DNA of 64,000 nucleotides from Nostocales cyanobacterium 94392 (GTDB taxonomy: Bacteria > Cyanobacteriota > Cyanobacteriia > Cyanobacteriales > Nostocaceae): contig JAYKJL010000131.1 in the NCBI GenBank assembly GCA_035285725.1, forward strand, positions 54,485 through 118,484, given 5' to 3'. The notes beneath the pieces are model-generated. The model had not been told where the DNA came from, did not search any database, and was given only the letters and a program-made list of their open reading frames with translations. Shown piece by piece: positions 3 to 12,650 of this stretch; positions within the stretch are counted from its first letter, which is position 1; the number at the start of each line of letters is the position of its first letter. Position numbers and translations under genes: made by a program.

Positions 3-548
3 ATGCGTATGGTTGTGACTGGTCCCGTCGGGGCTGGAAAATCTACATTTATTCGTTCTATTAGTGAAATCGAAGCTGTAGATACAGACCGCAGAGCAAC
101 AGATGAAACTTCGCATCTCAAGCAAAAAACTACTGTTGCTTTTGATTTTGGTCGATTGCAATTTAATCGCGATATGGCACTACATCTTTACGGTACACCA
201 GGTCAAGAACGATTCGATTTTATTTGGGATATGTTAATTCGTAAGGCTCATGCTTATATTTTACTAGTAGCAGCTCATAGACCCGGAGAATTTCGCTATG
301 CTCGTCGTGTAGTTTCTTATATGAATCAAAGAGCGCAAATCCCGATGATTGTCGGCTTAACCCATATTGATTGTTCGGGTGCGTGGTCTCAAGAAAATAT
401 AGTTACTGCTTTGGGTTATTACGACCTAAATACACAGCCTCCTATCGTATTAGTTAATCCCACTGAAATATCTTCTGTTGCCAACGCTGTAATTGCTTTA
501 GTGCAGCATTATGTACAATATTCTGCGACAAAAGTAATCGCTGTATAA
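3..548 (+). CDS. Small Ras-like P-loop GTPase (MglA/CvnD-like); true start may lie a few codons upstream of the window
   Basis: G1 GPVGAGKS, G2-like TTVAFDFG, G3 GTPGQERF, G4 THID; 181 aa. Confidence 0.85.
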   Translation: MRMVVTGPVGAGKSTFIRSISEIEAVDTDRRATDETSHLKQKTTVAFDFGRLQFNRDMALHLYGTPGQERFDFIWDMLIRKAHAYILLVAAHRPGEFRYARRVVSYMNQRAQIPMIVGLTHIDCSGAWSQENIVTALGYYDLNTQPPIVLVNPTEISSVANAVIALVQHYVQYSATKVIAV

Positions 549-665
549 TTGAGTATTATTAAGTATTATTGTGTGAAATTAAACTTAGTGAATAATCTTC
601 TAATTCCTAAGTTAGAATAGTGTTTTATTAATGTCACATAAAAAAGTATTATCTTAAGGTAAGAT

Positions 666-1670
666 ATGGCATTTACTGGTTACTTATCTAAATTTTCTTT
701 ACCGGAAATATTTGAATTTTTAGAACAAGGTTACAAAACTGGATTGCTCAGTATTCGTGCTTTGAAAGATGATCGCGATCGTCTTGCTGAGAATCATTAT
801 ATATGGCTGCGTCAAGGTCGTATTGTCGCCGCAGCAAACAGCTTGGATAATCAAGGTTTAATTTCAATGATTGCCCAAAGAAATTGGGTAAGCGAAAGCA
901 TTGCCAAAGAAAAGTTTCAAGCTAGTAGTGGGAGAATGGCAATAGGTTTGTGCCTCAAATCTCAAGGATTGCTTACAGCAGAGCAACTGACATTATTATT
1001 CCGCGCTCAAATAATGGCTCAAGTTTCTACTTTATTTGAACTAGAAAATGGTAAATTTGATTTTGATTTTCACGCTTCCATACCAAAAGCAGAAATGACT
1101 GGTTTGAGTATGTTGACAACAGAAGCGACAATTAAAGGTCTCCGGAGCCTGCGAAATTGGTCTGCATTAACAGCAAAATTACCCGACTCGACTTCAGGTA
1201 TTTCAAAGAAGATAGAATTCTTGCCTCACCTCCAGTTAGATTCTCAAGAATCAAGAGTTTGGGAATATGCAAATAGTCAGTATTCCTTGAATCAGATAGC
1301 CTCCCGGCTGTTAATTCCTTTAGAAAAGGTACGACAGATTGCTTTTCGATTAATAGTGAGTAACTTAGCAGAAGAAGCTTTTATTATAGCTACTCCTAAA
1401 AAGCCAATTATTATTGATGAAACTAAAGAATTTGCCGATTTAGATTCTACAAATGGATTTGGTGAATTATCATCTCACGCATTTACAACCTATGTATCTA
1501 CCTTCAAGAGTAATGAACCTGCTTACGTTTTAAATAATCAGCAACGAGAACAACCACAAATTGAACATAAAACAGTAGATCCAATACTCAATAATTCTCA
1601 TCAAATTGATGTCAGCCAGTCATTTTTACAAAACTTAGTTGGTTTTCTTAAAACAAAGGTTGAAATTTGA
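666..1670 (+). CDS. DUF4388/PATAN (PatA N-terminal) domain protein without a receiver domain
   Basis: N-terminal GYLSKFSLPEIFEFLEQGYKTGLLSI and IWLRQGRIVAA typical of DUF4388; C-terminal LVGFLK tail. Confidence 0.8.
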   Translation: MAFTGYLSKFSLPEIFEFLEQGYKTGLLSIRALKDDRDRLAENHYIWLRQGRIVAAANSLDNQGLISMIAQRNWVSESIAKEKFQASSGRMAIGLCLKSQGLLTAEQLTLLFRAQIMAQVSTLFELENGKFDFDFHASIPKAEMTGLSMLTTEATIKGLRSLRNWSALTAKLPDSTSGISKKIEFLPHLQLDSQESRVWEYANSQYSLNQIASRLLIPLEKVRQIAFRLIVSNLAEEAFIIATPKKPIIIDETKEFADLDSTNGFGELSSHAFTTYVSTFKSNEPAYVLNNQQREQPQIEHKTVDPILNNSHQIDVSQSFLQNLVGFLKTKVEI

Positions 1671-2329
1671 AATTTGCAAGTTGATTTATATTCTGTTTAG
1701 GTTTTCTTTTTGTAACAGCGTGTTTAGAAAACAGGTTATAAAATAATTATTAAGGTAGTGTGTGTTAAGACTCGTAAAGATTTGGAGGTTTAAGTAAGTC
1801 AGAATTTGCCATATTGCTTTCTAATGCACTATTTTTGAGCATTGAGTGCGTTATTGCATAACTACCCAAAAATGATAAAAAAAATAATCAAAAAACTGAA
1901 AATATTTGATTAATAATTTCATTAATTGTGCGATTTTAAATCCGTACAAACAACAAAGATGTTGAAAAAAGAAAATCAGGAAAAACACGGATTTATTTGT
2001 AATGATAAAAGTCTAATATTATATATAAATAGTGGGTGCATCCTCGTATTGGGCAATAGCAATTTTTTAAATGGTTGATGGAACGTTAGCAAATATATCA
2101 AGTAGAAAAAGAAAAATTTTATGAATATATCCTTTTCTTTTTTTTTATAAAAATATCTTGTAAATGTTCTCAGTCTTGAAAAAGAAAAGTTATCAACCAA
2201 TGCATAAAATTAGGGTAGCTATCCCGAACCTGTTTGCTTATTGGATTGCATTCAATTAAGTATCTCCTGAGTGGCTGTATAGCTAGTCTGGACTTTTAAG
2301 GGAAGACCTATTAATAAAGGGAACAAAGT

Positions 2330-3544
2330 ATGAGCCATCCGGAAATGATGGTATCGAGTCAATTACTCGATGAATTTAGAACTTGTACTCAATTACAATA
2401 CAGTGGCAAATTAAACATCAAAAGTTCCAAAGGGAATAAATGGGTTTTTTACTACCGATTGGGTCGTATAGTTTGGGCAACTGGAGGAACTCATCCCTTC
2501 CGACGCTGGCGCAGACACATCACCCAACATTGCCCGGATATTGATATTGACAAAATGCAATTAAATTCGGCAGAAATATCAATCTCAAATGATTATTGGG
2601 ATTATAAACTGCTAGAAATTCTACATGAAAAGCAGAAAATTAAGCGCGAATATATTAATTCTGTAGTAGAAAGAACTATTGCAGAACTGCTGTTTGATTT
2701 AGCTCAACAAGCGCATTTTAATCAAATTCATTGCGATCGCAGTGCTGATGTCATATTGGAAGCACCGATGAGCTTTACAAGTGCAGATATGTCTTTGAAG
2801 TTCATGGAAGATAGTTGGAAAAATTGGTCTGAAGCCGGTTTGGCAAATTTTTCTCCCGATTCGGCTCCAATTTTACGTAGACCCGAACAGTTACAGCAAA
2901 TGGTAAGTCCAGCTGTGTACAAAAACTTTGTGAATTTGATGAACGGTAAATACACCCTACGGGACTTAGCCGTGAAAATGAAGCAAAGTCCTTTACCTAT
3001 AGCTCGTTCATTATTACCTTACGTCCTCAAAGGTATCATCGAACTGATAAAAGTCCCCGATTTACCTTTCAAAATAGGTGACGGTCAAAATACACCGACA
3101 GTGGAACCGGAACCGGAACCACCTGCGGGTCCGTTAATAGCTTGCGTAGACGACAGTCCTCAAGTCTGTCAGATGCTCGAACAAATTCTTGTCCCTCAAG
3201 GACTAAGGTTTATTAAAATTCAAGACCCCGTACAGGCTTTACCAGTTTTGATTGAAAATAAGCCAGACTTAATTTTCTTAGATTTGGTGATGCCAGTTGC
3301 TAGTGGTTACGAAATTTGCGCTCAACTGCGTCGGATTTCAGTTTTTGCAAATACACCAGTAATTATACTTACAGGAAGTGATGGTTTATTTGACCGAGTT
3401 CGTGCCAAAGTAGTTGGTTCCACAGATTTTATTACCAAGCCTGTAGTAGCTGATAAAGTACTGGGGATAATACGCAAATACATACATACTCAATCTTCTG
3501 TCAAAGGTAGTTCAAATACACAAATGTCATTAAGGCATTCTTAA
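2330..3544 (+). CDS. PatA-family response regulator (PATAN + REC; PixG/PilG-like)
   Basis: YYRLGRIVWA PATAN segment; receiver motifs CVDDSP, FLDLVMP, ILTG, FITKP. Confidence 0.9.
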   Translation: MSHPEMMVSSQLLDEFRTCTQLQYSGKLNIKSSKGNKWVFYYRLGRIVWATGGTHPFRRWRRHITQHCPDIDIDKMQLNSAEISISNDYWDYKLLEILHEKQKIKREYINSVVERTIAELLFDLAQQAHFNQIHCDRSADVILEAPMSFTSADMSLKFMEDSWKNWSEAGLANFSPDSAPILRRPEQLQQMVSPAVYKNFVNLMNGKYTLRDLAVKMKQSPLPIARSLLPYVLKGIIELIKVPDLPFKIGDGQNTPTVEPEPEPPAGPLIACVDDSPQVCQMLEQILVPQGLRFIKIQDPVQALPVLIENKPDLIFLDLVMPVASGYEICAQLRRISVFANTPVIILTGSDGLFDRVRAKVVGSTDFITKPVVADKVLGIIRKYIHTQSSVKGSSNTQMSLRHS

Positions 3545-3787
3545 TTTACTTATTTTTATCAGCGACATTGCTGTATTCTTAGGCGACATTCTTTGAAGTA
3601 AATGCCTATCTCTATATTAGCGTTGTAAAAATAATTTGATTATCACTTGAGTTAAGCATAAGTGTTTATACTGAAGCTTCATTAACAAAATATGCATCAA
3701 AATTAGGTAAAGCTCAAGCTTTAAATATCTAATTTGAATGCTGAATAAGCGTTTTTTGTTGTTAAATAAATTTGATAGGTAATTATT

Positions 3788-4150
3788 ATGAGTACTATTT
3801 TAGTTGTTGAAGATGGTTTAACTGATATGCAGGTGATTAGTCGTTATTTAGAGCAAGCTGGCTATAGTGTCATGGGAGCAACAAGTAGTGAAGAGGCTCA
3901 AGAAAAAATAACTCAAAATAAACCTGATGTCATCTTTCTTGATGTGATTTTACCAGGGAAAAGCGGTTTTGAGATTTGTCGCGAACTCAAAGAAAATCCT
4001 AATACCAGCACAATACCAGTCGTTTTTTGCTCTACAAAAAATAGTGATGTAGATAAAATGTGGGGAGATATGTTAGGTGCCGATGCGTTTCTTTCTAAGC
4101 CCGTACAAAAGGAAGAATTGGAAGGAGTCTTACAAAAATTAAAAAAATAG
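3788..4150 (+). CDS. cheY: Single-domain CheY-like response regulator (PixH/PilH-like)
   Basis: VVEDG, FLDVILPGKSGFEIC, CST, LSKP; 120 aa. Confidence 0.92.
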   Translation: MSTILVVEDGLTDMQVISRYLEQAGYSVMGATSSEEAQEKITQNKPDVIFLDVILPGKSGFEICRELKENPNTSTIPVVFCSTKNSDVDKMWGDMLGADAFLSKPVQKEELEGVLQKLKK

Positions 4151-4192
4151 CTGATTAACAATGCGAATAAACACGTATAAGGAACAATAGTC

Positions 4193-4666
4193 TTGGACAG
4201 TTCAGAAAAGTTTTTAAGCTTTAACTTAGGGATAAAAAATACAGCAATCATTTCATTGCAAAATGTAACAGAAATATTGCCAGTATCTTTGAATGAAGTT
4301 TGCTGCGTACCCCAGATGCCAAGCTGTGTATTTGGTATCTATAATTGGCGCGGTGAAATGCTTTGGCTAATTGATTTAGAAGCAATGCTAGGCTACTTAC
4401 CTTGTTCCTATGGTAGTAATTTTGTTTCCAAAATGATGGCGATTATATTGGAGAAAGAAGGTAAATCCTTGGGACTATTAGTACGGCAAATTATGGATAT
4501 TGAGGAGTTTAGTTTGGAGCAAATGAAGCCACCATCACCCGAATTAGTTTCTCAAGAAGTTGCTCCTTTTTTGCAAGGTTATTTCATTAAATCTTCAGAA
4601 GAAATGATTGTTAATTTAGATGCTTCTGCAATTCTTGAATCTCCTTTATTGTCAATTCATAATTAA
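4193..4666 (+). CDS. cheW: CheW-like adaptor (TTG start)
   Basis: VPQMPSCVFGIYNWRGEMLWLIDL CheW signature; lies between CheY and the MCP. Confidence 0.9.
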   Translation: MDSSEKFLSFNLGIKNTAIISLQNVTEILPVSLNEVCCVPQMPSCVFGIYNWRGEMLWLIDLEAMLGYLPCSYGSNFVSKMMAIILEKEGKSLGLLVRQIMDIEEFSLEQMKPPSPELVSQEVAPFLQGYFIKSSEEMIVNLDASAILESPLLSIHN

Positions 4667-4670
4667 TAGC

Positions 4671-4826
4671 GATATTAAATCAGTTAACAGTCAACAGTTA
4701 TCAGTTATCACGGTTTCAGTTGGGGATTTAACCCCGACTGAAACACACCACCCAGGCGAAGTGGGGGACTCTGAATCCCAATTGATTTACAGTTTTTAAC
4801 TGGTAACTGATAACTGATAACTGTTA
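4671..4826. repeat. ~150-bp dispersed structured repeat, copy 1 (CAGTTAT/ATAACTG inverted ends, two internal hairpins)
   Basis: Near-identical copy at 40665-40806. Confidence 0.85.
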
Positions 4827-4891
4827 ATAATAACCAGAAAAACTCAACTTTCTTTAGCTGTAGCAATTTTAAATATTTTTAGGTACCTTCA

Positions 4892-7800
4892 ATGACTAAT
4901 ATATATCAAGAAAATGCTGAAAATGGACATTATTTAGATAATGTTGAAAAATCCGATAAACTCAGCGAATTAAATCAACAAATTTCTAATTTAAATAGTA
5001 TCGACCAGCAATTTAAAAATTGGCGAATACACTTATCATCAGTTGTTGATCAAATTCGTCAAGTAAAAGAATTAGAAGAATTAGTAAAAGTTACAACCGC
5101 AGCCGTTAGAAAGAAAATAAAAAGCGATCGCGTGTTGATTTATCGTTTTGATTCATCATCATCAGGTGTTGTCATCGGAGAATCAATGAATCAGGGTTGG
5201 ACACCTGCAAAGGGTGAAATTCTCCCGACGATGATTTTTGGTTTAGACGCAAGAGAAGAATATTTAGAAGCTGTCAGCATCAAGGATATTAAAGAAATTG
5301 AACTGACGGCTTACAAAGCTCAATTGTTAGAGAAATTCCAAGTTACAGCTAGTTTAACCATTCCAATTTTAGTTGCAGGTGAAATTTGGGGATTACTAGG
5401 GATACACAGTTGTGCAACAGCACGTCAGTGGGAAGAATGGGAAATCAGCTTATTAACTCAAGTAACTGCGGAATTTTCTTATAAATTGCAAAATTTTGAA
5501 TTACAAAGAAAACTAGAGCAGCAATCACAAGAGTTTAAATCGATTTCAAAAGTTATTGATAAGATTCAACTAGCTTCGAGTCTAGATAAAGTTTTCCGTA
5601 CTACTACCGAGGAAGTTCGCGAAATAATTAAATGCGATCGTTTAGCAGTTTATCGCTTTAATGCTGATTGGAGTGGGGAATTTATTGCTGAATCTGTTGC
5701 AAATGGTTGGATTTCTCTGGTTGGTCCGGGTCTCAAAACTGTTTGGGAAGATAGTTATTTGCAAGAAACTCAAGGAGGACGCTATCGCCAGCACGAATTC
5801 CTAGTAGCAAATGATATCTATCAAATGAATCATGCCCCTTGTCATGTGGAAATTTTAGAACAGTTCCAAGTCAAAGCGTATGTAATTGTTCCTGTATTTG
5901 CGGGACAGAGATTATGGGGTTTATTAGGTGCTTATCAAAATACTGGTGCTTATCAATGGCAAGAAGAGCAAGTTAAATTATTGCGTCAAATTGCGATTAA
6001 CTTAGGTGTAGCTGTATCCCAAGCTGAGTTCGTACAGCAAACCGAAGAGCAATCGCGACAATTAGCAAAGACAGCGGAACGTCAACAAACTTTAATTAGC
6101 CTGACTCGTAAAATTGGAGAAGGACTTACACAAAAAGTTACAGACTCTTCACAATTTAGTCAAATTCTTCAAACAACTGCTTATGAAGTCCGTCGCTTAT
6201 TGCAAACTGACCATACCGCTATTTATCGTTTTAATGAGGATTGGAGTGGTCAATTTATTGCAGAATCTATCGGTAAAAACTGGAAGCCTTTTATAGAAAA
6301 AGAAATTGACCAAGCTTTATTGAAAGAAAACGGTCATTGTGACTCTATCCGCAGCCTTGAATCAATCTACAAAGAAGGAGATACCCATCTTCAGGACACT
6401 CATGGAGGTCGCTACAAACAAAAAGCCAGTTTCGTTGTTAATGATGTAGAAAAAGCTGGGTTCCCTCCTTGCTACATGGAGTTATTAGAGCAATTTGAAG
6501 CTAAAGCTTATCTTACTGTTCCGATCTTTCAAGGCGAGGAACTTTGGGGATTATTAGCGAGCTATCAACATTCCGGTTCTCGTAATTGGGAAGATTTTGA
6601 AGTCACTGCAATGGAACAGATTGCCGTACTGTTGGGAGTTGCAATTCAACAGACACAAACATTAGATAAGTATCAGCAGCAATCTGAAAAAATGGCAAAA
6701 GCAGTAAAACGGGATAAGGCTGTAGCCAAAGTGATTGACAAAATTCGGCAATCTCTTGATATCGAGAGTATCTTTTTAACTACTACTCAAGAAATGCGGG
6801 GACTATTAAATACTGACCGTGTAGCCGTATATCGTCTCAATCCAGACTACAGCGGCGAATTTATTTCCGAATCCATAGCTCCTGGCTGGCTTCCTTTAGT
6901 AGATAGACAACATCAAATTCGACGTTTACAAGAAAGTCTCAACAGTTGTACCAGGATGCGAACTTTATTCAAAAGTAGCGAAGTCGATACAAGTACTATA
7001 GACCCTTATTTACAAAGTTCTTTAGGTAACATTGGCGAGAAACAATCTTACGTTGTTTCTGATATATACGCTAAAGGCTTTAACGATTGTTATCTTCAGG
7101 TATTAGAGCAATACCAATGTAAAGCTTACGCTATTGTTCCTATTTATCAAGGAAAAAAACTCTGGGGAATGCTTGCAGCTTATCAGAATGACGGACCACG
7201 TGAATGGGAAGACACAGAAGTTAACCTGTTGACACAAATTGCCAGCCAGTTAAGTGTAGTGCTACAGCAAGCTGAATTCCTCCAACAATTACAAGCACAA
7301 TCATCACAAGTTGCACAAGCCGCAGCCCGAGAGAAGCAAGCTAGAGAATCTTCGCAAACAGCAGCTATGCAACTTTTAGCAGCAGTTAGACCTGCTTTAA
7401 ATGGTGATTTAACGGTACGTGCGCCAATTACCGAAGATGAACTAGGTACCATCGCTGATGCTTACAACAATACCTTACAAGCATTACGCCAAATCGTTCT
7501 GCAAGTACAAGCAGCAGCTCAACAAGTTGCCGAAACTTCCGTTAAAAGCAACCTGTCCTTGACTGGGTTAACAGACTTAGCACAAAAACAGTCCAGAGAA
7601 ATCAGCGGAGCTTTAACCGAAATTCAACAGATGGTTGATTCTACTCAAGAGGTAGTATCAAACGCCGAATCAGTACAAATTGCAGTGCAAAAAGCCAACC
7701 AAACCGTAGATTCCGGCGATACAGCCATGAATATGACTGTAGAAGCCATTCAAGCAATCCGCGAAACCGTTGCTCAAACCAGTAAAAAAATTAAGCGCCT

Positions 7801-8338
7801 CAGTGAATCCTCCCAGAAAATTTCCAAGGTAGTAAACCTAATCAGCAACTTTGCTACTCAAACCAACGTACTAGCTTTGAACGCAGCAATTGAAGCCACC
7901 CGTGCAGGTGAATATGGTAAAGGCTTTGCAGTAGTAGCCGATGAAGTACGTTCGCTGTCTCGTCAGTCAGCGGCAGCAACCATCGAAATTGAAAAATTAG
8001 TCCAAGAAATCCAAGAAGAAACCGGCGAAGTTGCAGTAGCAATGGAAACAGGCATTCAACAAGTAGTAGAAGGTACAAATTTGGTTAACCAAACCAGACA
8101 AAACCTCAACGATATTGTTGATGCAACTGCTCAAATCAGCGATTTAGTTGAAAGAATCACCGATGCAACCCAAACCCAAATGCTCCAATCGGTATCAGCC
8201 ACAGCATCCATGAAAGACGTAGCCCAAATTTCCCAAAAGACTTCCACCGAAGCTAACAGCATTGCCGTAGTTTTCCAACAGTTATCTGAAATGGGACAGG
8301 ATTTGTTAGCAAGTGTAAGTAAGTTTAAAGTCAATTGA
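4892..8338 (+). CDS. Soluble methyl-accepting photoreceptor with 4 GAF domains + HAMP + MCP signalling domain (PixJ/PtxD-like cyanobacteriochrome)
   Basis: Four RVxIYRF...LWGLL GAF repeats; bilin-binding Cys in GAF2-4; [15 protein letters not shown]; [31 protein letters not shown]; no TM helix evident. Confidence 0.93.
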
Positions 8339-8339
8339 A

Positions 8340-8369
8340 TTTTAGATTTTAGATTTTAGATTTTGGATT
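8340..8369 (+). repeat. STRR (TTTTAGA/TTTTGGA)n
   Basis: Heptamer tandem directly after the MCP stop codon. Confidence 0.9.
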
Positions 8370-8753
8370 ATGAATGAGGTGGAATTTAAGAGGAGAACTA
8401 AGCAGCTAGCGTTGCGAGTAATCAGTTTAATACAAGCTTTAGAAGCAATTCCCCATAACTTAACTGCTCAGGTTATTAGCAAGCAATTAATTCGTTCGGC
8501 AACTTCTGTAGGTGCTAATTACCGTTCAGCTTGTCGGGCTAAATCAACTGCCGATATTATTGCCAAACTGAGCTTGGTTGAAGAAGAAGCAGATGAAAGT
8601 CTTTACTGGATGGAACTGATTGTTGAATCAGCTTTAATCCCACAAGAAAAATTAACTAACTTGATGTCGGAAACTACCGAGATTTTAGCAATGACTGTTG
8701 CATCCATTAAAACTTTACGTATTAAATCCCAACATCCAAAGTCCAAGATTTGA
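8370..8753 (+). CDS. Four-helix-bundle protein (23S rRNA IVS / Avd-like family)
   Basis: FKRRTKQLALRVI...QLIRSATSVGANYRSACRAKS...EEEADESLYWMEL; 127 aa. Confidence 0.88.
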   Translation: MNEVEFKRRTKQLALRVISLIQALEAIPHNLTAQVISKQLIRSATSVGANYRSACRAKSTADIIAKLSLVEEEADESLYWMELIVESALIPQEKLTNLMSETTEILAMTVASIKTLRIKSQHPKSKI

Positions 8754-8983
8754 AATCTGACGGGCTTTGCTGATTGAATTGATGAATTTGTCAACGTAAA
8801 TTTATGCTCTCATGTAGCAAAGCCTAAACCTGGATTTCTCACAAGTAAGTGGTAAGCGTTGAGTGACGGATTGATTTTCCCACTACTCACTACTACTTCC
8901 AATTTCCTTCTTGTTTGTGAGAAATGCGGGTAAAATCCTCGACACTTCCTCCTGAAGGGGAAACCACCAGAATCGCAGTGTCC

Positions 8984-9007
8984 CCAAAATCCAAAATCCA
9001 AAATTGA
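8984..9007 (+). repeat. STRR (CCAAAAT)n, inverted relative to 8340-8369
   Basis: ccaaaatccaaaatccaaaattg just before the cheA ATG. Confidence 0.85.
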
Positions 9008-9011
9008 AATC

Positions 9012-12000
9012 ATGATTACCGACTCCTCGATTCGCGAACAAGGATATCTTTATTTTCTCAGTGAAGCTCCAGAATTACTACAAACTATTGAACAAGAACT
9101 TTTTAGTTTAGTTGAAGAGCGAAGTACCAATAAAGTGCATAATTTAATGCGAGCTACTCATACACTTAAAGGTGGGGCTGCTAATGTTGAATTAGAATCA
9201 ATTACTAAAATAGCTCATTCTTTAGAGGATGTTTTTAAAGCTTTATATAATCCTGAAGTAGAAATTGATTCTTATTTGTACTCTTTATTATTACAAGCTT
9301 TCGAGTGTTTGCAATTATGCTTAACTTCGGAAATGATGGGGACTAAAATTGATGATGATGAACTGATGCAGCGAGCTGCTTCGGTATTTGCACAGCTACA
9401 GGAAAAACTCGGTGATGCTTTTGGTGCTGAAGCTCATATTCCTACTTCTGAGGAATTAGGTTTCGATATTGTATTATCCATTTTTGAGACAGGTGTTACT
9501 CAGCGTATAGAAAGTATTCAAGAGTTACTTAATAATCCTCCCGAAATTACTAAAATTGCTGATTTTTTACGCGCTCAAGCCGAAGTTTTTACTGGACTTT
9601 CTGAGTCTTTAAATTTACCTGGATTTGGTGAAATTACTCAAGCTATTATTGCCGCATTAGAAGCTAATCCCTCTCAAGCTTTAGAAATTGCTAAAATTGC
9701 TAATCATGATTTACAGCAATCAAGAAAAGCTGTTTTAGATGGCGATCGCGAACGTGGTGGAGAACCATCAAAAGCTTTACTTGCTTTTTCGCAGTCTGTA
9801 GTAAATAATTCTCAAGTTGAGGCAGAAAATTTATCTGTAAATGCAAAAAATCAATCATTAAATACTGAATATTTTTCTATTCCTTTAAGAAGAGAGATAG
9901 AACAATTATATCAATTTCTTATCAAAGGCAATACTGATAACAAACCTCTAAACTCAAAGTCAGCAAAGTTCCATTTAAAAGTAATTCGGTATATCTTAGG
10001 TTGGTTTAATCATGAATTAGATATTCCTGAAGAAAATCTTGGTTTGCACCTACTTATTCCCAAAGATAATCTGGAAAAATCTATGGAGTATGTAGAAAAC
10101 TGGCTGCAGGAATTTATTGATTTTTTGCAAGATGATTCCGATAATCCAAATCTTTATCTTTACCGTATTGGTGGTATTTTAACGGTACTTTTAGCAGTTG
10201 CAAAATTCAAATATTCTCAAGGTAATCTAGATAATTTTTCATTAATTGAAAGTTTAAAAAACAAAATTTCCGATATTGCAAAGCAGTATAAAAATTATTC
10301 TCCTGTCGCTGCTAAAGAAAAAAAATGGCTTGATAATCCCAAGTTAAAAAAATTAGTAGAAATCAAACAAATATCTCCCGAAATTGAAATTGCTGTAAAT
10401 CAAGATGAAAATATTGTAGAAGCAATTTGGGGAGAAGAAGTAAATTCGATGATGAATAATCATATTATTGAAGATGCAACAATAGGTTTTGAAGCTGATA
10501 GTTTAGAAAGCGGACTTATTAACTCTAAATCATTACCCTCCATTGACGAGAATGATATAGATGCAGGTTCTTCCGAAACAATTATTCAACTTCCAACTAA
10601 TTCAGTTACTAAAATCGAAAAAAACATAGAAGAAAAATCGCCAAAAACTCTGAGAAATTCTAAGTTACCTGGTTTTGTACGTGTAGATGTAGAAAGTTTA
10701 CAGCGGCTTAATTATTTAGCAGGAGAATTACTAATTTATCAAAAGCGTCGGACTTCACAGGATGAACAGCTTAAAGAAATAATTAAACAGTTATTCAAAA
10801 AGCTTCAAAAGCATCAACAAACTTTAGAACAATTACAGGAGTTGCCTTTACAATCTCAAAGATTAATATCTAAACATAGGGTAAACTTTGGGTTTTTGGA
10901 GTTCGATTCTTTGGAAATGGATGACTACACAGAATTTAATTTAGGATTGCATGAAGCTATGGAACAAGCAATCCAATTACAGGAAATTATAGAATCAGCA
11001 AATGTCATTTTTCAGCAATCTAGTCAAATTCATGAGAAAAAACAGCGATTAACTCTTGGTATTATTGATAATTTAGTTGAAGCAAGAATGTTACCTCTGG
11101 GTAATATCCTAAATCGTTTCCCCCAAATGGTACAAAATCTTAACAACGTTCATGGTAAAAATGTCGAATTACGGCTGAGTGGTGGGGGAGTTTTAGTAGA
11201 CAAAGCAATGGCTGAAAAGCTTTACGAGCCATTATTACACTTGGTACGCAATTCTTACGATCATGGAATTGAATCAGCAGAAGTTCGTTGCGATCGCGGT
11301 AAATCAGAACAAGGTTTAATCGAAATTTGTGCTTACAATCGAGGTTCTCAGACTGTAATCGAAGTTCGAGATGATGGTGGAGGTTTGAATTTTGAAAAAA
11401 TTCGCGCTAAAGCAATTGAATTAGGATTTTTACATCGAGATAGGGAATTTGATAAACATGATTCAATTTTGATGGAAGAATTACTAGATTGTTTGTTTTC
11501 GCCTGGATTTTCCACCGCTAGTAAAGTCAGTGATATTTCTGGACGGGGTATTGGGTTAGATATTGTCCGCGCTCAATTACAAGCGCTCAATGGATCTATT
11601 GCCGTTTACTCACAACCCCAGCAAGGAACAACATTTGTACTCAAAATTCCTTTTTCTATGACGACTGAAAAATTAATGATAGTTCAAACGGGAGGTGCTG
11701 TTTACGCACTGCTATTAGACAGTATTGCGAAAATATTGCTTCCATCTCCCGAACAAATTAAACAGTTTGAAAATAAAAAAGTTCTTTACTGGAATACTGG
11801 TAAAGAAGAGCGTATGGTAAATTTACTCAATCTTTCAGATTTAATGCAATATAATCGCTCATTTAATAGCGAAAATCTTTTACATAATCAATCTATAATT
11901 AATAATGCGGATAAAACCGCAAATCCTATACTATTGCTACGCAGTAATGACCAAGTTTTAGGTTTAGAAATTGACCAAATAATTGGGGAACAAGAATTAG

Positions 12001-12650
12001 TAGTTAGACCTTTAGGTCAAGCAATTGCTCCACCAAAATATGTTTACGGGTGTAGCAGTTTAGCTAATGGTAATTTAATTCTAGTCATTGATGGTACTTT
12101 GTTACCATCTATTAGCGAAATGCAGGCATCAATTGATTATACGGTGCTACCGTCAGCGGCTTCTTTAAATAAGAAAGCGTTACAAATGTCGGGAGAAATA
12201 ATTACATCTAAAGCTCTACTTACTGCTTCTAAATCTACAAAAAAGCCTCAAATTACTTCAGAAAATCAAGTTAAATCTTCAAAAGTAGTTTTAGTAGTCG
12301 ATGATGCAATTAGTTTACGGCAAACGATTTCTTTAACTTTACAAAAATACGGTTATCAAGTAATACAAGCCCAAAATGGAGTAGAAGCCTTAGAAAAATT
12401 ACATCATCATCCTAAAATTGATTTGGTGATTTCCGATTTAGAAATGCCCCGAATGAATGGTTTTGAATTATTAAGCAACCTGCGCCAAAATTCAGATTTA
12501 GTTAATTTACCCGTAGTTGTTCTGACTTCTCGTAGTGCCGAAAAACACCGTCAACTTGCAGAAGCATTAGGGGCAAATGCTTATTTAACTAAGCCTTATC
12601 TAGAACATGAGTTTCTTTCTAAGGTCGAGGAATTAGTAATGAGTAATTAA
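9012..12650 (+). CDS. cheA: CheA-like hybrid histidine kinase (Hpt-HATPase-CheW-REC; PixL/ChpA-like)
   Basis: RATHTLKGGAA Hpt; HLVRNSYDHGIE, DDGGG, GFST, SGRGIGLD; C-terminal REC SDLEMPRMNG. Confidence 0.93.
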   Translation: MITDSSIREQGYLYFLSEAPELLQTIEQELFSLVEERSTNKVHNLMRATHTLKGGAANVELESITKIAHSLEDVFKALYNPEVEIDSYLYSLLLQAFECLQLCLTSEMMGTKIDDDELMQRAASVFAQLQEKLGDAFGAEAHIPTSEELGFDIVLSIFETGVTQRIESIQELLNNPPEITKIADFLRAQAEVFTGLSESLNLPGFGEITQAIIAALEANPSQALEIAKIANHDLQQSRKAVLDGDRERGGEPSKALLAFSQSVVNNSQVEAENLSVNAKNQSLNTEYFSIPLRREIEQLYQFLIKGNTDNKPLNSKSAKFHLKVIRYILGWFNHELDIPEENLGLHLLIPKDNLEKSMEYVENWLQEFIDFLQDDSDNPNLYLYRIGGILTVLLAVAKFKYSQGNLDNFSLIESLKNKISDIAKQYKNYSPVAAKEKKWLDNPKLKKLVEIKQISPEIEIAVNQDENIVEAIWGEEVNSMMNNHIIEDATIGFEADSLESGLINSKSLPSIDENDIDAGSSETIIQLPTNSVTKIEKNIEEKSPKTLRNSKLPGFVRVDVESLQRLNYLAGELLIYQKRRTSQDEQLKEIIKQLFKKLQKHQQTLEQLQELPLQSQRLISKHRVNFGFLEFDSLEMDDYTEFNLGLHEAMEQAIQLQEIIESANVIFQQSSQIHEKKQRLTLGIIDNLVEARMLPLGNILNRFPQMVQNLNNVHGKNVELRLSGGGVLVDKAMAEKLYEPLLHLVRNSYDHGIESAEVRCDRGKSEQGLIEICAYNRGSQTVIEVRDDGGGLNFEKIRAKAIELGFLHRDREFDKHDSILMEELLDCLFSPGFSTASKVSDISGRGIGLDIVRAQLQALNGSIAVYSQPQQGTTFVLKIPFSMTTEKLMIVQTGGAVYALLLDSIAKILLPSPEQIKQFENKKVLYWNTGKEERMVNLLNLSDLMQYNRSFNSENLLHNQSIINNADKTANPILLLRSNDQVLGLEIDQIIGEQELVVRPLGQAIAPPKYVYGCSSLANGNLILVIDGTLLPSISEMQASIDYTVLPSAASLNKKALQMSGEIITSKALLTASKSTKKPQITSENQVKSSKVVLVVDDAISLRQTISLTLQKYGYQVIQAQNGVEALEKLHHHPKIDLVISDLEMPRMNGFELLSNLRQNSDLVNLPVVVLTSRSAEKHRQLAEALGANAYLTKPYLEHEFLSKVEELVMSN

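Follow-up and report, generated by a model that had tools for sequence, protein, structure and literature searches.

Does a small GTPase encoded directly upstream of a cyanobacteriochrome taxis operon work together with that operon, and could it act on type IV pili? The question is raised by the beginning of a 64,000-nucleotide stretch of DNA from Nostocales cyanobacterium 94392 (contig JAYKJL010000131.1, here C131; C131:54485-118484, the whole of which is called the window), whose genome (7.0 Mb in 318 contigs) is of the Rivularia/Calothrix type. The start of the window was found to split a gene cluster. A V4R gene and a Roadblock gene fall just outside it on the same strand, and because of these two upstream genes the full unit is V4R-Roadblock-GTPase-PATAN, hereafter the cassette. 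Judged from gene order and phylogeny, the cassette that is linked to the chemotaxis-type (che) genes is a lineage-specific derivative of a wider cyanobacterial module. As to its function, a pathway of its own that would meet the light pathway at the pilus motor is tentatively favoured. The genes concerned are listed below, with positions in the window unless C131 is given.

C131:53376-53837 (window -1108 to -647), plus strand: V4R/Bet3-fold protein, 153 aa (fold match)
C131:53877-54248 (window -607 to -236), plus strand: Roadblock/LC7 (MglB-like) protein, 123 aa (Pfam Robl_LC7, 1.5e-15)
3-548, plus strand: small Ras-superfamily GTPase (Pfam ATP_bind_1, 8e-14; Roc, Ras, Arf)
666-1670, plus strand: PATAN(DUF4388)-only protein (Pfam DUF4388, 5.4e-25, residues 4-166)
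1671-2329: intergenic region between cassette and taxis operon, with a palindrome, a -10-like box and a leader
2330-3544, plus strand: PatA-type (PATAN plus receiver) regulator, PixG-like (Pfam Response_reg, 3e-21; DUF4388, 4.7e-5)
3788-4150, plus strand: single-domain CheY-like response regulator, PixH-like (Pfam Response_reg, 2.2e-24)
4193-4666, plus strand: CheW-like coupling protein (Pfam CheW, 9e-28)
4892-8338, plus strand: cyanobacteriochrome methyl-accepting chemotaxis protein (MCP), PixJ/AnPixJ type (Pfam: four GAF, HAMP, MCP signalling domain)
8370-8753, plus strand: 23S_rRNA_IVP (four-helix-bundle) gene, 127 aa (Pfam, 2.4e-15)
9012-12650, plus strand: hybrid CheA, PixL-like (Pfam Hpt, HATPase_c, CheW-like (CheW), Response_reg)

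The original prediction, which was made from the letters of the window, had named a GTPase and a DUF4388-only protein co-oriented with PatA-CheY-CheW-MCP-CheA, and this gene content was confirmed throughout by the listing of open reading frames and by Pfam. The MglB-like partner that had been suspected upstream of the window is indeed encoded there, as the Roadblock/LC7 gene (1.5e-15) ends 239 nt before the ATG at position 3. Clustered in one orientation, the downstream genes (PATAN-receiver regulator, CheY, CheW, cyanobacteriochrome MCP, hybrid CheA) have the content of a Tax1/Pix-type operon. The second GAF domain of the MCP (residues 216-392) matched AnPixJg2 (3W2Z, E 3e-74) and NpR6012g4 (6BHN, 7e-73), and the MCP is therefore a true cyanobacteriochrome receptor. 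NCBIfam CheA models were matched by the hybrid CheA with an E value of 3e-74, yet below the model cut-offs. In operon content and in the closeness of GAF2 to AnPixJg2 the locus resembles Tax1/Pix of Synechocystis (PixGHIJL) and the AnPixJ/NpR6012 loci of Nostocales, by analogy with which control of phototactic orientation is predicted for it; it differs from them in the GTPase, Roadblock and stand-alone PATAN genes, which are unreported there in the literature examined.

Linkage of the cassette to the taxis operon

When 151 cyanobacterial genomes were sampled, the GTPase turned up in 17. Only two of these, the present genome and a Calothrix PCC 6303-type genome, have it linked to che genes; in the other 15 the module stands free. 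At most of the loci examined it was accompanied by a Tlr1989-type protoglobin and at some by a hemerythrin, and che genes were absent. The order protoglobin-Roadblock-GTPase-PATAN-hemerythrin was found in Gloeomargaritales and Elainella, and the same order without hemerythrin in Thermosynechococcus, Leptolyngbya and Pseudanabaena. Other Nostocales have PATAN, GTPase, Roadblock, V4R and protoglobin genes in varied orders, for example PATAN-GTPase-Roadblock-V4R-protoglobin. A second module was detected in the genome of strain 94392 itself (C295:12810-15906, corresponding to L036:7810-10906, minus strand), not near che genes and in the order PATAN-GTPase-Roadblock-protoglobin; it encodes a PATAN-only protein, a GTPase 58% identical to that of the cassette, a Roadblock protein and a globin that is a close homologue of Tlr1989 (PDB 8H17, 6.7e-87). 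The globin-type module is thus a direct relative of the cassette, sharing its Roadblock-GTPase-PATAN core and in many cases V4R, whereas the che-linked cassette is without protoglobin or hemerythrin, has a longer PATAN-only protein with an acidic motif, and stands beside che genes.

In a maximum-likelihood tree the che-linked GTPases formed one clade (support 99/96, 23 rows), nested in a larger clade (99/97) that holds the globin-type modules of non-heterocystous cyanobacteria. Since all che-linked GTPases fall into one clade, the linkage arose once, in the Calothrix/Rivularia/Dulcicalothrix group. On the evidence of the tree and of gene order, the common ancestor lost the globin as the linkage came about. 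The view that the GTPase and DUF4388 genes are a module of this light pathway needs amending: the module is autonomous, and outside this group its usual partner is a sensor globin rather than che genes.

In another cyanobacterial lineage (L130:7615-12696) V4R-Roadblock-GTPase-PATAN is convergent with genes for a bilin reductase, two response regulators and a GAF-PAS histidine kinase, perhaps another photosensory neighbourhood. As a second che association this locus was rejected, as the neighbours on the opposite strand are the reductase, regulators and kinase and there is no taxis operon.

Within the che-linked group the island was highly conserved. The order DUF3110-SIS-V4R-Roadblock-GTPase-PATAN-PatA-CheY-CheW-MCP-CheA (11 genes) was found at every sufficiently long locus of Rivularia, Calothrix, Dulcicalothrix and related metagenome-assembled genomes (MAGs), with GTPase identities of 67-96% across che-linked loci. 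A stretch of 70 kb around the start of the window was compared with the PCC 6303-type genome. The block from DUF3110 to CheA was kept in order, and none of the other genes tested (100 aa or more) had a syntenic counterpart within 60 kb; one of them gave only a distant, out-of-order match. Flank synteny has decayed while the junction between cassette and operon survived. The conserved linkage across Nostocales that the original prediction called for thus exists in Calothrix, Rivularia and Dulcicalothrix, where it outlasts its flanks, but it has a single origin and is missing in other Nostocales.

Two neighbours of the system are of a different standing. The 23S_rRNA_IVP gene between MCP and CheA is 88-89% identical in two relatives, 33-49% identical in most others and absent from L016, L017, L020 and L124; the Calothrix PCC 6303-type genome is among those that lack it. 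The gene is thus a passenger of variable occurrence and sequence, outside the conserved system. Upstream of the V4R gene lie a SIS-domain gene and a DUF3110 gene, followed by a divergent tamB. This DUF3110-SIS (GKRP/MurQ-like) pair (C131:51505-52885) also stands beside the module, inverted, in Leptolyngbya PCC 6406 (L038:13399-14684), for which reason their adjacency looks older than the che linkage.

One rearranged locus was detected. In the MAG Co_metawrap_1709 two contigs end (L044:12425-12730 and L030:1-200) with the inverted repeats CAGGGTTAGCGCGTCTCAAACCCTATTGACA and with a duplicated AGTTTGGCGA inside the che-linked GTPase gene. From the inverted terminal repeats and the 10-bp target duplication it follows that an insertion sequence (IS) joins the two contig ends and splits the GTPase gene; a tandem GTPase paralogue is located just upstream of the split gene. 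The joined contigs read SIS-PatA-CheY-GTPase2-V4R-Roadblock-GTPase1::IS-PATAN-CheW-MCP-CheA, with the cassette embedded between cheY and cheW. As reconstructed from these contigs, the rearrangement interleaved the cassette with the operon rather than parting them.

The region between the cassette and the operon was analyzed further. The 660-bp gap (1671-2329) is present as originally described, and it contains the palindrome AAATCAG-N8-CTGATTT (1973-1994), which all 12 che-linked loci have, those of Dulcicalothrix and Calothrix PCC 6303 among them, at 150-355 nt before the patA-like start codon. The palindrome is followed by a TATATA-type -10-like box and then by a conserved leader of about 300 nt, and the last 300 nt of the gap have a mean column identity of 67%. 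Because the palindrome and leader are conserved, separate promoters for cassette and taxis operon are likely. The gap is probably the taxis operon's own regulated promoter, and the palindrome probably the operator for a regulator of that operon. For the cassette, a conserved element of its own, TTGGCG-N17-GATAAT, was scored in this genome, with two hexamers that recur in 7-9 of 12 loci and a GATAAT that ends about 35 nt before the V4R start codon. As read from these elements, two transcription units are the likelier arrangement, which gives more substance to the original caution that co-transcription was not guaranteed. Counts of predicted terminators and promoters in the gap did not exceed those of shuffled sequence, and no terminator-like site was found there. 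A search of 11 loci for the J-box of the hormogonium factor SigJ (GGGaAtacT) upstream of the V4R, GTPase and PatA-like genes gave scattered, unconserved sites with two mismatches.

Other candidates in the gap were dismissed. An RNA element was not supported by an Rfam match, and RNAalifold gave -4.2 kcal/mol with essentially no covariation. The sole 8-mer shared by the cassette and taxis promoters, AATCAGAA, is weak as a common motif, the palindrome being specific to the taxis promoter. A regulon of the palindrome was likewise discarded: the genome contains 43 sites with one mismatch, about the number expected for AT-rich DNA, a look-alike in C117 lies inside a recombinase gene, and no other convincing copy was found in the genome.

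The proteins of the cassette

The GTPase probably starts 9 nt earlier than the frame listed above, at the ATG at C131:54478 (giving MEIMRMVV), since the DNA of all nine relatives compared preserves TATGGAAATCATG and paralogues begin with MEI. It is a single-domain protein of 181-184 aa with Roc, Ras and Arf above Pfam cut-offs and with the motifs G1 GPVGAGKS, G2 KTTV, G3 GTPGQ and G4 THID, of which KTTV and an extended YGTPGQ are invariant in the GTPase alignment. The profile of this alignment matched structures of Arf (2.6e-7) and MglA (3T12, 1.5e-4) as well as Rab and Ras.

For family placement the group definitions of Wuichet and Sogaard-Andersen 2015 (PMC4316618) were used. A Roadblock/MglB homologue within four genes, which marks the MglA family, is present here and was kept in nearly all cyanobacterial loci examined. 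GTPGQ at G3 and the Thr that replaces the G2 arginine finger agree with groups 2-5; they set the protein apart from group 1, the motility MglA proteins, as it has no intrinsic arginine finger and GTPGQ instead of TVPGQ. On these motifs the GTPase is of the MglA family in the broad sense only, of the groups 2-5 type. The label MglA-like is correct for the broad family and for the coupling to Roadblock, but it does not extend to group 1, because of GTPGQ, the lack of an arginine finger, the odd G4 and a profile no nearer to MglA than to Arf. The class into which the cassette falls is that of the group 5 systems, which the accessible text of PMC4316618 describes as known in cyanobacteria, coupled to MglB, occasionally beside PATAN genes and of unknown function. 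It departs from the description there in G4, and V4R, protoglobin or hemerythrin partners and a linkage to phototaxis are unmentioned in that text. All 44 cyanobacterial members examined depart from the group 5 consensus [NT]KxD and show [TS]HxD, whereas NKxD is the form in most of the Chloroflexota relatives inspected and NxF[DE] that of CvnD-type proteins of conservons. The His in place of the canonical Lys makes the nucleotide specificity of the GTPase uncertain. By analogy with its relatives, GTP binding and Roadblock-stimulated hydrolysis are predicted. In the Roadblock protein the Asp-Gly pair D31-G32 is invariant in 14 sequences and matches the description for partners of groups 2-5.

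The 153-aa protein adopts, in an AlphaFold2 (AF2) model with a predicted local distance difference test score (pLDDT) of 89, what appears to be the two-layer alpha/beta fold of V4R, Bet3 and H-NOX proteins. Foldseek matched the model to the V4R domains of MopR/PoxR (MopR 7.5e-7, TMq 0.71), H-NOX, Bet3/TRAPPC3 (1e-5) and TRAPPC3 of Thorarchaeota (2.6e-4). With the Pfam V4R model the protein reached 17.4 bits, below the cut-off of 31; its public annotation is 'hydrocarbon-binding protein', and neither it nor the Roadblock and PATAN-only proteins could be assigned to a named family with NCBIfam.

At C131:53376-55032 genes for a Bet3/TRAPPC3-fold protein, a Roadblock protein and a small GTPase are thus co-oriented in a single tight bacterial cluster. 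TRAPP/Ragulator-type platforms of eukaryotes and Asgard archaea similarly bring together a small GTPase with Roadblock/longin and Bet3/V4R folds, but the likeness is by fold only (12-18% identity) and the genes here form one co-oriented cluster. In Asgard archaea these three protein types are generally not in operons with GTPase genes (PMC10933270).

PF14332 (DUF4388) was matched by the PATAN-only protein with 88 bits against a cut-off of 25 over the full model (1-122). The alignment and the AF2 model gave a layout of PATAN (1-170), a helical domain (about 190-238), a disordered linker and a C-terminal helix. The term DUF4388-only therefore holds in that PATAN is the sole recognised domain, but leaves out the helical domain, linker and helix. 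A PDB fold search gave no match at E <= 0.001, with weak local winged-helix-like matches at about 190-238. The C-terminal helix carries the conserved motif SQSFLQNLVGFLKTK (S-x-SFLQNLVGFLK), which presumably resembles membrane-targeting amphipathic helices, a likeness that we take as a lead only. In the che-linked loci the PATAN-only protein is longer than elsewhere, by about 40 aa. Of 22 che-linked orthologues, 19 carry the linker motif FADLDSTNGFG (window 1400-1500; consensus F[AD]DL[DNT]SxN[GA]FG); none of the 33 further PATAN-only proteins from cyanobacteria has it. This acidic motif presumably resembles the CheY-binding peptides of CheZ and FliM, which again is a lead only. The PATAN-only protein may serve the GTPase as effector or adaptor.

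Cassette, light pathway and pilus motor

A link to type IV pili is suggested by three lines of evidence, all indirect. In Synechocystis, PilB1 and PilC are binding partners of the PATAN domains of PixG, PixE and regulators related to these, and binding of the pilus motor by PATAN is known for PixG, PixE and LsiR (preprint 10.1101/2021.06.11.447907; PMC12288463). In an uncultured Actinomycetota MAG (L048:5171-16086), three Roadblock genes, a gene for a 1130-aa PATAN protein and one for a homologous GTPase are followed by aroE-pilB-pilT-pilC, the pilB product having MshEN and T2SSE domains; as read from gene order, this is an independent link between this module type and pilus motors. The third line is that the taxis operon beside the cassette is directed at pili, and that PilB and PilT are encoded in the genome of strain 94392. 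From the literature and the actinobacterial synteny the PATAN-only protein is predicted to bind PilB/PilC. A role of the cassette in pilus control may be inferred. Thus, of the original proposal that the GTPase couples the light pathway to the pilus, the connection to pili gained ground from the PATAN literature and from L048, and the coupling itself would still be an inference. The actinobacterial conservon (CvnA-D) and the pilus-linked triads share with the cassette a GTPase, in a sister clade of the tree, and Roadblock partners. They differ in that no CvnA-like kinase or CvnC/DUF742 protein was found among the flanking open reading frames scanned here, in the conservon G4 (NxFD) and in the 1130 aa of the PATAN protein of the Actinomycetota triads.

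The reading that we tentatively favour, as a real possibility that stops short of being probable, is an autonomous G-protein switch (V4R, Roadblock, GTPase, PATAN output) that converges with the adjacent Pix-type pathway on the same pilus motor. The GTPase would be a nucleotide-dependent switch, reset by the Roadblock dimer as a platform for a GTPase-activating protein (GAP) or guanine nucleotide exchange factor (GEF) function and modulated by the V4R protein as a ligand-binding regulator or GEF-like partner, although bacterial V4R proteins are not known to have GEF activity. In its GTP-bound form it would engage the PATAN-only protein, which may be membrane-held via its C-terminal helix and would act on the pilus motor (PilB/PilC) in the manner of the PixG and PixE PATAN domains of Synechocystis. 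Cassette and Pix-type pathway, most likely separate transcription units, would meet at the same motor, probably PilB. There the G-protein switch would set or stabilise the active cell pole and the phosphorylated PixG-like regulator would bias this choice by light. A candidate contact between the pathways is the acidic motif, specific to the clade, in the linker of the PATAN-only protein.

Several points weigh against this joint action. The linkage is of single origin and hence counts as one event, and in other Nostocales the orthologous taxis operon lies apart from GTPase modules: in five of them that have such modules, the PixG-like orthologue (62-72% identity) is on other contigs or at least about 0.8 Mb away. 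The presumably unrelated DUF3110-SIS genes have been retained in the same island, so that retention alone is no proof of shared function. The gap has its own operator-like palindrome and leader, one of the two GTPase genes of Co_metawrap_1709 is split by an IS, and MglA, the GTPase of motility, is no more than a distant relative of the GTPase found here. The occurrence of the module alone with a globin sensor in most cyanobacteria fits an autonomous pathway. Much of this would suit an autonomous cassette with an input (V4R ligand binding) and output of its own, lying beside the operon through an inherited accident in one lineage. Such an accident would account for the single origin, the hitch-hiking DUF3110-SIS genes, the free-standing modules in 15 of 17 genomes, the conserved independent regulatory region of the gap and the negative searches for a shared promoter motif or J-box. 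We nevertheless consider it somewhat unlikely, as the junction between cassette and operon survives despite full decay of flank synteny, the rearrangement in the MAG kept all members interleaved, and the loss of the globin and gain of the linker motif are specific to the linked clade.

The loss of the sensor could also be read as serial wiring, which is the reading of the original prediction, with the light pathway replacing the globin: a phosphorylated PixG-like or CheY-like regulator would act on GTPase and Roadblock, and the PATAN-only protein would be the sole pilus output. In Myxococcus, FrzX, FrzZ and RomR act on MglA/MglB. The missing protoglobin, found at most other loci examined, fits such a swap of sensors, and so do the cassette embedded between cheY and cheW in one MAG and the acidic linker motif specific to the che-linked PATAN-only proteins, with its presumed likeness to CheZ and FliM as a lead only. 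The precedent of Frz acting on MglA/MglB is published (PMC3441718), and the cassette is like MglA/MglB and Frz of M. xanthus in placing a Ras-like GTPase beside a Roadblock gene, in its connection to a chemosensory system and type IV pili, and in a PATAN gene nearby. It is unlike MglA/MglB (Thermus structures 3T12, 3T1Q) in having GTPGQ and not TVPGQ, Thr and not an intrinsic Arg finger, and [TS]HxD at G4. It also adds a V4R/Bet3-fold partner and a dedicated PATAN-only protein, and its input would be a cyanobacteriochrome MCP. We regard serial wiring as unlikely, given that the PixG-like regulator already has a PATAN output of its own; since the PATAN domain of Synechocystis PixG contacts PilB and PilC, a GTPase intermediary is taken to be unnecessary. 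The unlinked orthologous operons of other Nostocales and the likely separate promoters speak against it as well, as does the catalytic design of groups 2-5, which differs from that of MglA (PMC4316618). A bolder version, which is quite doubtful, is an independently built Frz/MglA-like architecture. In it Che would toggle the V4R/Roadblock/GTPase switch, a membrane-tethered PATAN adaptor would dock the phosphorylated CheY-type regulator via the acidic peptide and steer PilB to one pole, and the ancestral module would have been a haem-globin-gated pilus switch in which a light receptor came to substitute for the globin. A role outside motility, by analogy with PatA of Anabaena in cell division, polarity of tapered filaments, or heterocyst or hormogonium differentiation instead of pili, is very unlikely. 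PATAN was defined in PatA, a regulator of heterocyst pattern (PMC4316618), and the linked clade comprises tapering, heterocystous forms, yet the module also occurs in the unicellular or non-heterocystous Thermosynechococcus, Gloeomargarita and Pseudanabaena, homologous triads abut pilB-pilT-pilC in Actinomycetota, and the sole tested PATAN partners in the literature examined are pilus motor proteins.

Outlook for pilus-driven phototaxis

The occurrence of PATAN beside MglA/MglB genes has already been catalogued (PMC4316618 and Makarova 2006 as cited there; Han et al., preprint 10.1101/2021.06.11.447907). A literature search retrieved no paper on such a cassette linked to a cyanobacteriochrome taxis operon, on the V4R partner, on an exchange of globin for che genes or on a functional test of the module in cyanobacteria, in line with the earlier statement that no such module had been characterised in cyanobacterial phototaxis. 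A 2025 review of cyanobacterial type IV pili (PMC12288463) mentions no GTPase, MglA or Roadblock protein.

For experiments the locus is a good lead, but a mechanism is not thereby demonstrated. Through it the che-linked cassette is seen as part of a broader module of cyanobacteria, composed of sensor globin, Roadblock, GTPase, PATAN and often V4R, and the clustering of Bet3-fold, Roadblock and small-GTPase genes in a bacterium is of interest for the history of eukaryotic GTPase platforms. The linkage is present in the culturable strains Rivularia PCC 7116, Calothrix PCC 6303, Dulcicalothrix PCC 7102 and Calothrix parasitica NIES-267. With the cassette fixed beside a light-sensing taxis operon, control of pilus-driven phototaxis by a G protein becomes a testable idea. 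For the question of how cyanobacteria turn a light signal into the choice of active pilus motors, the locus offers a concrete and conserved candidate.

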